Shown piece by piece: positions 9,001 through 15,000 of a DNA stretch of 21,112 bases (positions are counted from its first letter, which is position 1; each line of letters begins with the position of its first letter). Made by a program: the position numbers. The DNA comes from a virus, in UHGV virus genome UHGV-0072395; one strand, 5' to 3'.

Positions 9001-12000
9001 CGCCTGATCACTTCCGCCCCTCCGCACAGGGGGATTCACCACAACAGAAATTTAACACCCGACCAGTTCTATTTCAACACAATACGGCTCTGTAGCCGAA
9101 GGTACCCTGGCTGGGTCTAGTGCTGATTGACGGGAATCGAACCGCCAGCACCCTGCTTACAAGGCAGGCACTCTAACTGCTGAGCTAAACCAGCAAATTC
9201 CTGCAACACTCTCACAGTGACTGTGCCCATGCCCTTGGGTTGCTGCCGCATCATTGCCGCTTATAACCGGTGCGCGTGTGGCGTTCGCGCTACCTTACCG
9301 GCATACCCATTTCCTCGTTAACCCTAACCAGCGGTATATCGCAGTTCGGACCTGCGTCTGGCTCTCTTCTCGGAGACTCGGGGCCACATCATGACTGTGG
9401 CTTGCATAGGCGGTCTGACCGCTCTACAGCTTCATTTTCGCCACCCACTCTCGCCAGCGAGCATCCCTACCCTCAGGACTCAGGCGCTGATCGTCAAAAT
9501 GATTAGACAAGGTCAGCGAATCCGGCAGTAACGCCCAGGCAACATAGAATTCGTGGGGCTCAAATTCATCGCCAGCAAACTGATAAGCGCCAACATGATA
9601 GACCTCGCAATCTTCCTCAAGCGCAATAATGTGAGCGATATGCCAGCCATCACAGGGATTCAGGAGGATTACCCAGCGGCCTTCAAGGTCTTTGGTTAGC
9701 TTTTCGCTTGCTGGTCTGAAGATAAGGGTTTCTGTTATCTGCTGGGACATTTCAGGCTCCAGAAACGACAAAAACCCCGCCGGAGCGAGGTTTTGATGAT
9801 TAAGCTGTGTGTCTAAGTGACCACTCTTAACAGGTTACGATAGTTTTTGCGTACGCGTTAGCTTTACTATATGTTTCAATATATGAAATTTCTTGCTCAC
9901 AGTTTCATTACACAGCAAACCATATATAAACTAATAATTTCAAGGTGATATTTATATGAGCGGATTCGCTTGTCAGGAATGCGGAAATGTTATAGACGAC
10001 ATCGAACAGAACTGCGAAGTTTGTGGCACAAGTCCCAATGTCGCAAGAATCGGAAACCAAAATTTCATGGTTGTCAATGCAATCACCGCTCATCTTGAGA
10101 AGGAGAAACTTTTTGATTATACAATTGGTCAGTTGTGGGATCTTACGACTCCAGTTGCTACGGAATTCATCACTAGAATTGAAAAAAAATTCCGACGGAA
10201 AAATAAATTCCATAACTATTTAGTCAAAGACAATCTGCCTAATTCAATACCTACGTTGCTATCAAAATTTAACGCAGGGACAATTATTTTTGAAAGCTTT
10301 TGCCAGACTGTAATGAACAAGCTAAAACTAAACTCTAATAACGAGACAGTTGTTTCGAAATTGGTTGGCGGAACGTTAGTGTTTGTACATTACAAATCTT
10401 TAAATGATGCAGATGATTTAGGAAAATTATTAATAGTAATGGTTGATAAACGTAGTGCCTTCGATTTTGAAGAGGGAAGTTTACAGCCTAAACGTCTTAA
10501 TCCAGTCAATACTGATGCTCTGCGCCAAGCCGCAATGTTTGATCTAACTTTGTTCGATGAAAGTTACCCAGATAACGACGGTCATTCCTATGTCGATTTC
10601 ATCCAAGGTAAATCCCAAAGTGATGTTTTCAAGGATTCGTTAGGCTGTACTCGAGATGTCGATAACAAGCGAAGTATTAATGAAATCTTTCGTGCTATAG
10701 AAGAGTTTGTTTCTTCAAATTCCTTAGGAAGAGCAGTTAGAGAAAATGCAGACATTGCCGTGAGAGATTTTCTTGACATTAAATCTAGAGATACTATTGA
10801 TAAATCTGTTAGCATTGATGAAGTCCAAGTTGTCATTGATAAATGTTTACCAAAAAAATCAAAATGCAAAGGAACTTTCAAAGATTTTGTCTATGAGAAT
10901 GAATTTAAAATAGACGCACAATTTGAACCCACTATATACTCTGCAAAACAGGCACTTACAATAAAGCTGACAGATGAAGACAAAAATTTCGAAATTAAAA
11001 TACTGCGAGGTGCAATTGGGGATGAAAAATCTAACAAACCAGTTATAATAGGCAGTAGAAATAATGAGGTAATCATCCGACTTTCCCCAGACGAATTTAA
11101 TAAGTTAATAAAATATGCAAATGAACAATAGTGATAATTTTGATAGAATCGCTGTTTTAATTTCATCTTCTGATATTACATCAGAAGATGGATTTGTTGT
11201 AATCAAATGCCCACAAGCCTACAATAACCATGAAAAATTAAATATACAATCCTTATTCTCTGGAATCGGCTATCTTAAATCCGATAGAATTTTTGAAGGC
11301 GATAAAGATATCTGGTTGGATAAGAGAGCAAATTTTTGGAGCGATGGACAGTGTCCTTTTTTTTCTAATTTCGAAAACTTTTGGCAACGCGTAAATGGCG
11401 CGGACAAATTACCTGATTATTTTTATATTGTATCTGATAAAATATCCCATTTAGAAGCGAAGGATAATAAAACACTAAATATATTCAACTTGTATTTTAC
11501 CTGGAAACAAATCCTTCTTAATTTATCCGATCATTTCGCGAATGAGTTTTACGTTTTTTTCTTGATGAACGATAAAGGTGGGGATAAAATTGAAATAGAG
11601 TCAACGCTGAACTTCAATCAACTACCAAAAATTGACATGCCTGCTGATAGCCTCAGCATTGCTTACAATCTTATTCAGAAACTTGATTTTGAAGATCTAC
11701 ATAAGTTAGAGCGCCGTTCAGTTATGCGTGCAACTCTTTATGAATTAACAAAATCAATGAATAAGGATAGTAATCTATTAAAACCCCTTATGGAACAAAC
11801 CGTTACATTTAGCAAAAAATATAATGAGCTATATGAAATATATACCAAGCGATTTTCGGTAAATAAACTTCTTAACGAGCTGGATGAAAAAAGCTTAGAG
11901 TTTACATCAAAAATAAATGAATTTATTTCCTCAAGTCAAACAAAAGCACTTACGATACCAGGAGCATTAATTGCAGTAGGTGCGTTAGCCAAGGCCGATG

Positions 12001-15000
12001 CCCCTCTTGAAGCAATTATCATTATTGCAGGGTTATGGATGATTAAACAAGTTAACAATTCCTCGAATGAAGTTTACAGAGAGGCATTTATAGCCTTGAA
12101 TAATAGACTAAATAATGCTTTCAAAAAATACCTTACCTTTCACAATGAACTTGAAGTAAAGAAAAGCGCCAGCGATATAAAAGAAGAGCTTTCAGATTTA
12201 ATTAATAAATCCAGCATTAGATTAAGTACTATTGACAGATTGGCATCTATGATGTTTTGGGGCGGAGTGGTTTACCTCATCGTAAAACTCTCTAATAATT
12301 ACCACCCTAAGATAATAAACTTTATCGAGTTTACCGTTACTAAATTATGCCAATATATTGCCCCATGAGTGACATGGGGCATAGTTAACTACTCATTTAA
12401 AACTGACATTAAACCATCAACAAAACCTAAAGCATTTTGAATTTTCTTCCTGATAGTTCCATCAGAACACTTCTTCTTTTTGGCTATCATTCTTAGAGAA
12501 ATCCCGATAACGAAGTGAGCAATTATTATTTCATACTCTTCTGGTTTATACTTGCGTAATCGAGCTACACAACCGTCAATCATGATCCCTTCATCATCAT
12601 CGCACTGTAGACGTGATTTTTTGCCGTGTGGCAGTAGCCCTTTAAATCCAGCGGCAACTGGTTGCCAGTCAACTCCATTACCGTCAGCTGCAGCCCACGC
12701 TCCCCAGCGGTCTAATACTTCGTACATATCACGCATTTAATTCTCCATACACTCATGCTTTTAAAATGACACCAATACCCATTACCCGATCCAGAAAACG
12801 CGCCCACAGCTCTAACTGCGTACCGTATTTCTGTTCGAATACTGAGACGTCGGCATGTAATTCATCGTGATGCACTCTGCACAGCGGTATCACGAAGAGA
12901 TCATGGGCCTTTGTTGCGGTTCCTCCCAGACCATGCCCTATTATATGGTGTGGATCGTCTGATGGTTGCCTACAGCATTCACAAGGCTGTGTTTTTACCC
13001 ACCGGGTATATTGCGGACATTCCCAACGCCGGCGCTTAGGCCGGAGCATAAACGACTCAGGGCTATCGGGATCAATTCGAATACTCAGAATCGGCTTGTG
13101 AACCTCCTGCGGGGGCTGGGGATCGATGTACCTGATATTCTCTGCAGACCAGTTGCGATCAACAAGGTCCTGCAGCATATCAGCCGCGGGAAACGACGGG
13201 ACGATGTCGCTTTCTTTGTACACCGATAGAAACGGCTCAACAGGTAGCCTTAAGGCATGTTGAGCCATCGTCTCTGTAATCGCATCTGCAATGCCGGATT
13301 TGACCGCCCACCAGCAAAGCTCAGCCATAGATAACTCGCGTTCTTTGGTATATCCCAGACCGATCAGCACGGTATCGATTACCCACTGGACCACATTCTG
13401 GTAGGCCAACTCGGAGAGCGTCTCCGTCGTTTGTTCACGTAACTCATTATCGCAATGCCAGCAAACAACTAATGCGCCAGGAAGATGGCGCATAGTGACG
13501 AATTCATGGTGATGATAATGTGAATGCGGGTACTGGCACTGTTTAACGTTATGCATCAGCCAGGCCTCAAGCGCATTAATGCCACCAGCTGCATTAATGA
13601 CTCTTTCATCCCTCATGAAAAAGCGAAGAATATCAAGATCCGCAAGAGGCTGGCGAGCATCAGGGATCCGCCCGGTTGGAATGTCTTTCATCCTTTCAGG
13701 CTGACGCTCTATCAGGACACGACCGTTAGCAAAAAGATGCATAAGCTCTCGCCCTGGCTTAAACAACACTACGCCGAGACGTGGCACAATTTCCGGAGTA
13801 AGCAACGCTCGCACAATGCCCCCTAAACCGTCAGATCTTTTAGCTTCTGCACGGCTTTTCCAACTTCAGCCATAGCATCTACGAACTCGTCAAACTTCCT
13901 GCTGGCCATTCCGTAAGCCTGAAGAATTTCCAACTTCAAGGGGTCGAGTTGCTTCTTAATTTCTGCACGATCCCCGGCTTTTTTCTCCGCTTCCTCTGCC
14001 GCTCTGATCAAGGCATCAGCCTGTTTACGTAATGCTTCCGGGGTTACTTCGAGCTGTTTATTCATTTTGCATTCCATCGTCGGCTGAGGAGGTGTCATAA
14101 CGGGCGCCACATAGTTGTGACCATATTTCGGGTGGTGCAAGGTTGTGGACCTTCCATCATCGATTACGCAGAGCATTCCGCTTTCACGGATAATTTCGAT
14201 CAGGGTCTCTTTGTCTTTACGATTGAGTCCACTGTACGCCGCCACTTTGTGGGTCAGGTGGGTTAGCGTGGCGCCCTCCGGTTGCCTTTCAACAAAACGC
14301 TTAACCCTGGAGAGGACTGGTTGCAGGTGTGGGGGTGTCATTCTCATCTTCATCCCATCACTGGCTAACAGTGCCGAGCAGCTTTAAAAGCTCAGGGAAT
14401 TTTGATTCAAAGAAATGTGGCTGAGTCTCCCGGGGATTCGCCGGACTGGTGATGTTTTTCCCGTACAGGAAACCTTTTGGCGTAACAGACCAGAATCTTT
14501 TCACGCCATTGATACCCGTTCGGCTGCGGCGCTCCTTCTGCTCAACTATGCCGTGGCCTGCCATAAGGTGATAAGCCTGGTTCGCGGTCATTCTGATGTT
14601 GTTAGCTTTAAGCAAAGCGCTGAGAGAAAGTGTTGGCCTGCTTGAACCGTCCAGCGCGCCAGCTGGCGCATCAATGGCATAAGAGGGCATTAAATCAGGC
14701 AACCCGGCCACCTGCTGAAGCTTCTGATACGCCCCGAGCTTTGACGAGTTGGAGAGATTGAGCATTCTGGCTGCAGACTCCAGAAGGATTACTCCAGCCT
14801 GGATGCGATCTGAATTGACGGTTACAGCTCCGGCAGTGTGCAGCGCGTCAAACGTTCTGATGACCTTCAGATTAAAAACAGCACTGATCCACATCGCGTA
14901 GGCATACACCAACTCACGGCAAACATATGTGCCTTGCTCATTGCCTCCACGGATGACACTTACAGGTTCTGATACATCCGAGTTGCTATTTTGCAACTCG

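Follow-up and report, generated by a model that had tools for sequence, protein, structure and literature searches.

A gene pair assigned to the DS-1 anti-phage family occupies the Q-to-lysis cargo slot of a Klebsiella/Enterobacter-type prophage

Introduction

DS-1 (DefensePredictor system 1, working identifier D390) was described from an E. coli contig by DeWeirdt, Mahoney and Laub (bioRxiv January 2025, Science 2026; PMC13092281). It comprises DS-1A (WP_000355468.1; 391 aa), which joins a zinc finger to a YejK region and whose HHpred table lists NA37 and zinc beta-ribbon, and DS-1B (WP_000150292.1; 404 aa) (PMC13092281). On its native promoter in MG1655, the system lowers the plating of T1-, T5- and T7-like phages, with -log(efficiency of plating) values in Table S7 of 7.6 for Bas1, 2.7 for Bas26, 1.7 for Bas3, 1.7 for T3, 1.0 for T5 and 0.9 for T7, and T4 is not among its hits (PMC13092281). 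Bas26 is a T5-like phage of the Demerecviridae, and Bas03 is a T1-like phage of the Drexlerviridae. Here, we analysed two overlapping open reading frames (ORFs), ORF1 and ORF2, in the virus genome UHGV-0072395 (21,112 nt; this whole stretch is referred to as the window) and compared them with DS-1 and with other systems of similar design.

One such system is PANGU (Li et al., bioRxiv 10.64898/2026.04.06.716658), in which a YejK-like nucleoid-associated protein (NAP) resides on the nucleoid and is released when T4 EndoII degrades host DNA. The released NAP binds with nM affinity to the acidic DNA-mimicking (DMK) domain of its partner and thereby activates an abortive-infection effector. The effectors of Type I PANGU are RelA/SpoT-type toxins, and the Type II effector, Pag2B, joins a DNA-mimic domain at its N-terminus to a transmembrane domain at its C-terminus. 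Both Type II genes are needed and neither is toxic alone; the activation of Pag2B by Pag2A 'remains to be determined' according to the preprint, whose authors also raised PagB as a possible sensor. PANGU-Ecu restricts T4 and does not restrict T1 or T5 (bioRxiv 10.64898/2026.04.06.716658). YejK itself is a dimeric clamp on double-stranded DNA (dsDNA) with a basic pore of 30 A, and its DNA binding requires R173/R176/K177 and R276/R280/K284 (PMC11229321).

Results

Assignment of the gene pair to the DS-1 family

An earlier note on this DNA had described two plus-strand genes of 391 and 417 aa with a 17-nt overlap, and proposed them as a novel defence module in which no named system could be recognised. 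Both genes exist, their reading frames share the 17 nt (Table 1), and profile searches placed each protein in a named family. ORF1 scored 431.3 bits against a cut-off of 330 for the NCBIfam equivalog DS1_1_antiphage (NF053868; profile positions 3-369 of 369), and ORF2 scored 371.6 bits against a cut-off of 315 for DS1_2_antiphage (NF053869; profile positions 4-337 of 337). BLASTP aligned ORF1 with E. coli DS-1A WP_000355468.1 at 55% identity over 386 aa (E = 1e-155), and ORF2 with DS-1B WP_000150292.1 at 42% identity over 386 aa (E = 2e-94). By these similarities, the window pair is classed as a divergent member of the DS-1 family, an already-named system and not a novel one. Because it is homologous to the experimentally validated DS-1, the pair is very probably an anti-phage defence, so that the functional part of the earlier proposal survives and the claim of novelty does not. 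Defence by a NAP and a transmembrane effector had, in addition, been described as Type II PANGU (bioRxiv 10.64898/2026.04.06.716658).

The likeness to DS-1 extends to gene order and genomic position. In both systems gene A precedes gene B, the two being co-directional and adjacent; a protein with a zinc finger and a YejK/NA37 domain is followed by a partner of ~400 aa with hydrophobic helices; and the pair fills a prophage slot between a PF06530-type Q gene and a conserved block upstream of the lysis genes. At the native E. coli DS-1 locus (L114), DS-1A/B lie next to Q (PF06530) and on the other strand; beyond them come a variant of the block, a terminator and, about 170 nt later, a holin gene. 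The two systems differ in that the E. coli genes lie 2 nt apart whereas those of the window overlap by 17 (or 11) nt, and in that the window allele resides in a Klebsiella/Enterobacter-type prophage with identities as low as those given above. The shorter figure comes from the start codon of ORF2: most ORF2 homologues start at its third residue (M3), from which E. coli DS-1B also aligns, so the real overlap may be 11 nt.

Architecture of the two proteins

ORF1 carries an N-terminal zinc ribbon (C6-x2-C9-x10-C20-x2-C23, residues 6-23; zinc-ribbon Pfam matches are weak), and its residues from about 38 to 387 form a nucleoid-associated, YejK-like NA37 domain (Pfam NA37, E = 1.2e-23). The zinc ribbon had been claimed in the earlier note and the cysteines C6, C9, C20 and C23 are indeed present; it proved to be the trait of one clade, however, being found in the enterobacterial clade and a few other members and absent from the Pseudomonas and Vibrio members of the family. 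The AlphaFold model of ORF1 had a predicted local distance difference test (pLDDT) score of 79.6, and the only match that Foldseek returned for it from the PDB was YejK (9be2; E = 1.5e-13, template modelling score 0.54-0.60). A profile search of ORF1 against YejK gave E = 4.8e-20. The NCBIfam YejK equivalog (NF001557) was scored at 61.7 bits against a cut-off of 341, and because it lies below that cut-off ORF1 is read as a YejK paralogue and not as the housekeeping protein. ORF1 and YejK/NdpA (PDB 9be2) share the two-domain fold, the arm-like beta extensions and the C-terminal helix; they differ in that identity is about 15%, in the extra N-terminal zinc ribbon of ORF1, and in that the ORF1 family always occurs with a partner gene and on mobile elements. 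In the profile alignment, YejK R173 corresponds to ORF1 K219, where 34 of the 36 family members have K or R, and YejK R280 corresponds to K331. Alleles at 55%/42% identity, taken together with a distant pair from the same slot in other prophages, place KFRRKNKFH and DALRQAAMFDLTLF among the constrained motifs of ORF1.

In the predicted structure of ORF2 (pLDDT 87), residues 1-165 form an alpha/beta N-terminal domain. Beyond it the protein is helical, a stalk preceding the hydrophobic helices described below, with shorter helices at 176-227 and long ones of about 44-51 residues at 229-278, 297-340 and 346-396. The net charge of residues 1-165 is -8 (family median -7, range -14 to +1). Hydropathy across the family showed a conserved hydrophobic helical hairpin at residues 275-318 (nt 11937-12068) and a third conserved hydrophobic helix at residues 372-397 (nt 12228-12305). 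The hairpin is a helix-loop-helix around the invariant motif Q275-x-K277-x3-I281-P282-G, and D194, R200, S248 and Y339 are invariant as well as Q275, K277, I281 and P282. These features support ORF2 as a predicted membrane protein with hydrophobic helices in its C-terminal third. The earlier description of a nucleic-acid-binding protein with a membrane-associated partner is thus borne out by models and conservation, with a predicted YejK-clamp fold in ORF1 and conserved hydrophobic helices in ORF2. Neither fold comparison nor sequence searches of the PDB gave a significant relative of ORF2 among solved structures. A CorA-type channel fold and a ClyA-family alpha-pore-forming toxin fold were also considered for ORF2 and rejected, as the fold matches were non-specific and the PDB sequence searches were empty.

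Composition and signals of the operon

The pair had been called far more AT-rich than its flanks, and computation agreed: GC is 0.355 in ORF1 and 0.329 in ORF2, with third-position values (GC3) of 0.298 and 0.306, against 0.50-0.60 (about 0.52) in the surrounding minus-strand phage genes. All called genes neighbouring the pair lie on the minus strand with the sole exception of a 39-aa plus-strand gene (Table 1), so the earlier statement that the pair stands alone on its strand needs that one amendment. Two ORFs of ~400 codons at 33% GC, each with >100 homologues that stay paired, are not a product of chance.

An AT-rich control region and ribosome-binding site of the operon's own had also been described. 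The cargo-specific region upstream of ORF1 and the motif AAGGTG, 8 nt 5' of the ATG, are there; no convincing sigma-70 promoter was found upstream of ORF1, the best candidate being a weak 9/12 consensus match at 9909-9938. At the other end of the operon, a hairpin of sequence GCCCCATG-AGTGA-CATGGGGC stands where ORF2 and Q converge, as had been reported, with folding energies of -16.4 kcal/mol on the plus strand and -18.1 kcal/mol on the minus strand (z about -2.6 to -2.9). The hairpin is without a U-tract or T-run and is absent from the output of the terminator scan; for want of a U-tract, it is not a canonical intrinsic terminator. The view that the two genes are a self-contained, horizontally acquired cargo of the Q-to-lysis region is supported.

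Occurrence of the pair

We next examined where the pair is found. The exact ORF1 protein occurs on 22 metagenomic or isolate contigs, every time in the same prophage, and the flanks of the window match Klebsiella prophages. At the protein level, close relatives are found in Klebsiella oxytoca, Enterobacter, Pseudescherichia, Rahnella, Pectobacterium and Serratia. In nucleotide searches of 5,426 complete E. coli genomes and of deposited phage genomes, the window allele was absent and the matches were confined to the conserved block (57-100 nt); tblastn of phages returned only distant NA37 proteins, in lytic Pseudomonas phages.

The A/B pairing is kept in all contexts examined, down to about 35-40% identity in P. 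aeruginosa and V. cholerae. The P. aeruginosa pair (L009-L011) lies on the margin of a Pf-type filamentous prophage (Zot, integrase) and again has a 17-nt overlap; the V. cholerae pair (L012-L014) lies in an element with three integrase-like genes, beside an AbiEi_2 gene; both are without the zinc ribbon. Identities of A and B to the window pair correlate with each other (Spearman 0.90, n = 22), which is expected for linked genes and would also be compatible with a physical interaction of the two products.

A cargo hotspot between Q and the conserved block

The slot that holds the pair had been placed between Q and the holins, and domain searches agree, with a PF06530 Q on one side and PF16931 and PF05449 holins, accompanied by the lysis cassette, on the other. 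Its limits could be drawn sharply. In three prophages, the alignment of the Q genes holds at about 80% as far as the stop codon and ends there, and the conserved block bounds the other side, so the variable slot comprises 9863-12388. Klebsiella and E. coli prophages whose neighbouring cargo is unrelated share the block at 92-98% identity over 57-67 nt, and one E. coli genome shares it at 84% over 100 nt; the terminator hairpin of the block has z = -5.25. Most likely, the block is the late promoter/qut/tR' region served by the PF06530-type Q, the promoter function being one that we infer. The order at L114, where the holin gene comes directly after block and terminator, would suit such a region. 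The 3' half of Q has a GC of 0.33 against 0.51 in the 5' half, and the same holds for Q genes beside unrelated cargo. A recombination junction inside Q, with the AT-rich island reaching into its 3' half, was therefore rejected: in the three-gene alignment, similarity runs to the stop codon and the AT-rich 3' half proves to belong to the Q family itself.

To survey the slot, IMG/VR was scanned for the exact 24-nt core of the block. The core was found in 97 stretches, in every case downstream of a PF06530-type Q, and in 80 loci the distance from a Q homologue to the block is 614-2999 bp. DNA between Q and the block fell into 38 nucleotide clusters in these 80 loci, all of them AT-rich (GC 0.31-0.42), and with few exceptions the ORFs of the inserts run counter to Q. 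This slot, from the stop codon of Q to the block, is a sharply bounded cargo hotspot, as the earlier note had expected from the cargo of other phages.

The clusters include DS-1-like pairs and several other kinds of cargo. Klebsiella phage ST846-OXA48phi9.1 (L003) carries Kiwa in the identical slot (KwaA, E = 1.6e-82; KwaB, E = 5e-144; PADLOC library), and E. coli SCU-308 carries there a 237-aa gene of no assigned family. A distant pair of a NAP and a DS-1B-like protein (L018:1605-3994, L050:1181-3539) shows 21% and 25% identity to the window proteins; its NCBIfam scores (YejK 129.6, DS1_1 98.6, DS1_2 100.2) are all below the cut-offs, and it forms a deep sister clade of DS-1 that may be the Type II PANGU lineage proper. 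At L016:1581-3688, a 372-aa NA37 protein (Pfam 49.4 bits against a cut-off of 24.6) precedes a 330-aa protein that begins with a RelA/SpoT domain (E = 1.3e-16), the same order of NA37 and RelA/SpoT as in Type I PANGU; this cargo is also present at L020, L027, L069, L082, L106 and L103. Other inserts encode an AAA-ATPase (HEC-04/PtuA/AriA-like) with a cytosine methyltransferase, PDC-M53A, and a RecF/PtuA-like ATPase. Several recurrent cargo proteins of 237-427 aa, many of them next to a partner of 145-190 aa, gave no PADLOC or NCBIfam match (Table 1), and one matches DUF6731 alone. Among the slot protein families tested, at least 8 (273-427 aa) were without a match in PADLOC or NCBIfam, and six of them, scanned also against Pfam, gave no match there. 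By their position, these families are candidate defence genes and could be new systems.

Table 1 Coordinates of the gene pair, the borders of its slot, neighbouring features of the window, and slot cargo at other loci that gave no PADLOC or NCBIfam match
Feature	Coordinates	Strand	Description
ORF1, DS-1A-like	9956..11131	+	391 aa, ATG start; zinc ribbon and YejK-like NA37 domain
ORF2, DS-1B-like partner	11115..12368	+	417 aa, ATG start; possible true start M3 at 11121
AT-rich upstream region of the operon, cargo-specific	9863..9955	+	Shine-Dalgarno AAGGTG at 9943-9948; similarity to other prophages ends exactly here
Hairpin at the convergent ends of ORF2 and Q	12359..12381	both	Perfect 9-bp stem, 5-nt loop; covers the ORF2 stop codon
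Antiterminator Q, right border	12389..12736	-	PF06530 type, 115 aa, Pfam E = 3.2e-44
Conserved ~92-nt block, left border	9771..9862	-	Leader-like sequence ending in intrinsic terminator 9794..9771
115-aa ORF	9424-9771	-	No Pfam or NCBIfam match
tRNA-Thr	9120-9194	-	Anticodon TGT
sRNA STnc100	8847-9071	-	Rfam RF02076, full-length match
39-aa gene	8339..8458	+	Small hydrophobic protein with basic tail
Second AT-rich island	about 8000-8450		GC about 0.27
Holin	7428..7814	-	PF16931
Holin	7160..7441	-	PF05449
Unmatched slot cargo	L015:1030-1848
Unmatched slot cargo	L021:11277-12158
Unmatched slot cargo	L051:1908-2831
Unmatched slot cargo	L035:5810-7090
Unmatched slot cargo	L047:6018-7103
Unmatched slot cargo	L037:485-1513
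Unmatched slot cargo	L017:2432-3589
Unmatched slot cargo	L004:3609-4322

Neighbouring features of the window

Several features lie between the slot and the holins (Table 1). The 115-aa ORF begins right after the terminator of the block and is 108 aa in the gene calls of sister contigs. Two RNA genes, for tRNA-Thr and for the small RNA (sRNA) STnc100 (90 bits; gathering score 47), stand between the terminator-like block and the holin genes, at the site that tRNAs occupy in Stx phages. The second AT-rich island is richer in AT than the pair and contains the 39-aa plus-strand gene, whose product (MSNFLMLALAVILFLVSLVFFVSYLKDKKKLKNTFKRRR) matches the 'KPN_two_small' small membrane protein (NCBIfam NF033853; 43.7 bits against a cut-off of 33) and looks like a type I toxin.

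The closest deposited phage, Klebsiella phage Kp4866-6 (L001 6500-11800), has structural and replication genes in common with the window. Between its DUF968 gene and its holins it encodes a 282-aa zinc-finger-rich Q-like protein, a DNA methyltransferase, an HNH endonuclease and a TerB-like protein, so that the entire Q-to-lysis module is swapped. Because its Q type and cargo differ, this phage says little about the slot of the window.

Discussion

The account of the window pair that we consider probable is that of a DS-1-family anti-phage operon, expressed by the lysogen as cargo of a Klebsiella/Enterobacter-type lambdoid prophage, in which a PANGU-like NAP sensor and a membrane effector bring about abortive infection. 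The homology, folds and architecture are those described above; the trigger, the interaction between ORF1 and ORF2 and the action of the effector we infer by analogy with PANGU. In the uninfected lysogen, ORF1 dimers would occupy chromosomal DNA. Degradation or remodelling of that chromosome by an infecting phage would release ORF1, which would bind the acidic, DNA-like cytoplasmic part of ORF2. The membrane-embedded helices of ORF2 would then be switched on and damage the membrane barrier, so that the infected cell would be stopped before progeny are made.

This three-step model is favoured because the Type II architecture fits the pair and because the best-restricted targets of DS-1, the T1-, T5- and T7-like phages, are known to degrade host DNA. 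T7 does so by means of gp3 and gp6. For T1 and T5, the degradation is stated in the PANGU preprint (bioRxiv 10.64898/2026.04.06.716658). Like Type II PANGU, the window pair is bicistronic with the gene for the YejK-like NAP first, and the partner has an acidic soluble N-terminal part followed by C-terminal hydrophobic helices whose membrane insertion is predicted. As in PANGU, the NAPs of the hotspot pair with different effectors.

A number of observations nevertheless weigh against this account. The window pair was likened to Type II PANGU by its described architecture, and no zinc ribbon is mentioned for Pag2A. The published phage ranges differ, in that PANGU-Ecu restricts T4 and neither T1 nor T5, whereas the hits of DS-1 are T1-, T5- and T7-like phages and do not include T4. 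The acidity of the N-terminal domain of ORF2 is moderate. In ORF1, I327 and T335 replace R276 and K284 of YejK, so that only some of the six DNA-binding residues are basic and the chemistry of the pore is only partly conserved. Neither a mechanism nor mutants are reported for DS-1 in PMC13092281, and at 55%/42% identity the window allele may differ from DS-1 in phage specificity. PADLOC v2 (2023) gave no match for ORF1 or ORF2 at E <= 1; since this release predates DS-1, its silence reflects the age of the database and not novelty.

We also weighed three other functions for the pair. In a Kiwa-like mode of action, ORF2 in the membrane would sense phage attachment, DNA entry or envelope stress and would release or position ORF1, which would thread as a clamp onto the incoming phage DNA and block its replication or late transcription, giving direct immunity without cell death. 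The ring-shaped dsDNA clamp fold of ORF1 would suit this role, and the phages best restricted by DS-1 (T1-, T5- and T7-like) have linear genomes, which are injected slowly or stepwise; the idea of PagB as a sensor comes from the PANGU authors themselves. Kiwa, a membrane protein with a DNA-binding protein, fills the identical slot of a sister prophage, and the window pair resembles it in having two genes for such proteins in the same slot and orientation. The membrane protein gene comes first in Kiwa, however, and the two share no homology of sequence or fold. Kiwa homology of the pair was accordingly rejected: PADLOC showed no KwaA or KwaB relationship at E <= 1, Foldseek against the PDB gave only YejK for ORF1, and the true Kiwa in L003 was detected with the same PADLOC library. 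In PANGU, moreover, the NAP was shown to be a relocating sensor and the phenotype is abortive. Within the hotspot, the NAP stays constant while its effectors (a transmembrane protein or RelA/SpoT) are swapped, which a sensor NAP fits better. We regard the Kiwa-like mode as unlikely.

The other two functions would leave defence aside or make it secondary. ORF1 could be a chromatin protein in the service of the prophage, organising or silencing the prophage or its AT-rich cargo, or modulating late transcription near Q, with ORF2 as its membrane anchor. PHROGs has families for both proteins and labels that of ORF1 merely 'nucleoid associated protein', distant NA37 proteins occur in lytic Pseudomonas phages, and the operon adjoins the late regulatory region. 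Set against this, the E. coli orthologue, native to the same slot, makes cells phage-resistant when carried on a plasmid, away from any prophage context, the pair also occurs in unrelated elements (the Pf prophage and the Vibrio integrative element), and the slot exchanges the pair for bona fide defence systems; such a role is very improbable. In a toxin-antitoxin (TA) or addiction module, ORF2 would be a membrane toxin restrained by ORF1 and would serve mainly to stabilise the prophage. Translational coupling of the two genes and the hydrophobic hairpin of one product, a predicted membrane protein, recall such modules, and the plan of a TA pair is common among abortive-infection systems. At about 400 aa each, however, the two proteins are unlike the classical small TA pairs, Pfam and NCBIfam scans found no antitoxin-like DNA-binding repressor domain in ORF1 or ORF2, and in Type II PANGU neither gene is toxic alone and both are needed for defence; of the three functions, we give this one the least credence. 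Protection by the E. coli orthologue from a plasmid and the single-gene harmlessness in PANGU make both roles unlikely.

A bolder reading of the locus seems possible to us, if somewhat less than evenly so: the zinc-ribbon Klebsiella/Enterobacter clade of DS-1 may differ from PANGU in its trigger or in the action of its effector, and the slot may prove a defence hotspot with a wealth of mostly uncharted cargo. Under this reading, linear phage DNA may be what the NAP threads onto, or a regulated pore may be formed by the hairpin of ORF2.

To a defence family whose validation dates from 2025-2026, the window locus adds a divergent natural allele from clinically relevant prophages of Klebsiella and Enterobacter, which shape the susceptibility of their hosts to therapeutic phages. 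Comparison of the DS-1 alleles with the distant pair from the same slot shows which residues of ORF1 and ORF2 are constrained, and the conserved flanks of the hotspot can be used as anchors for harvesting further candidate defence genes. The window allele may help to explain how a DNA-clamp-like nucleoid protein activates a membrane effector.

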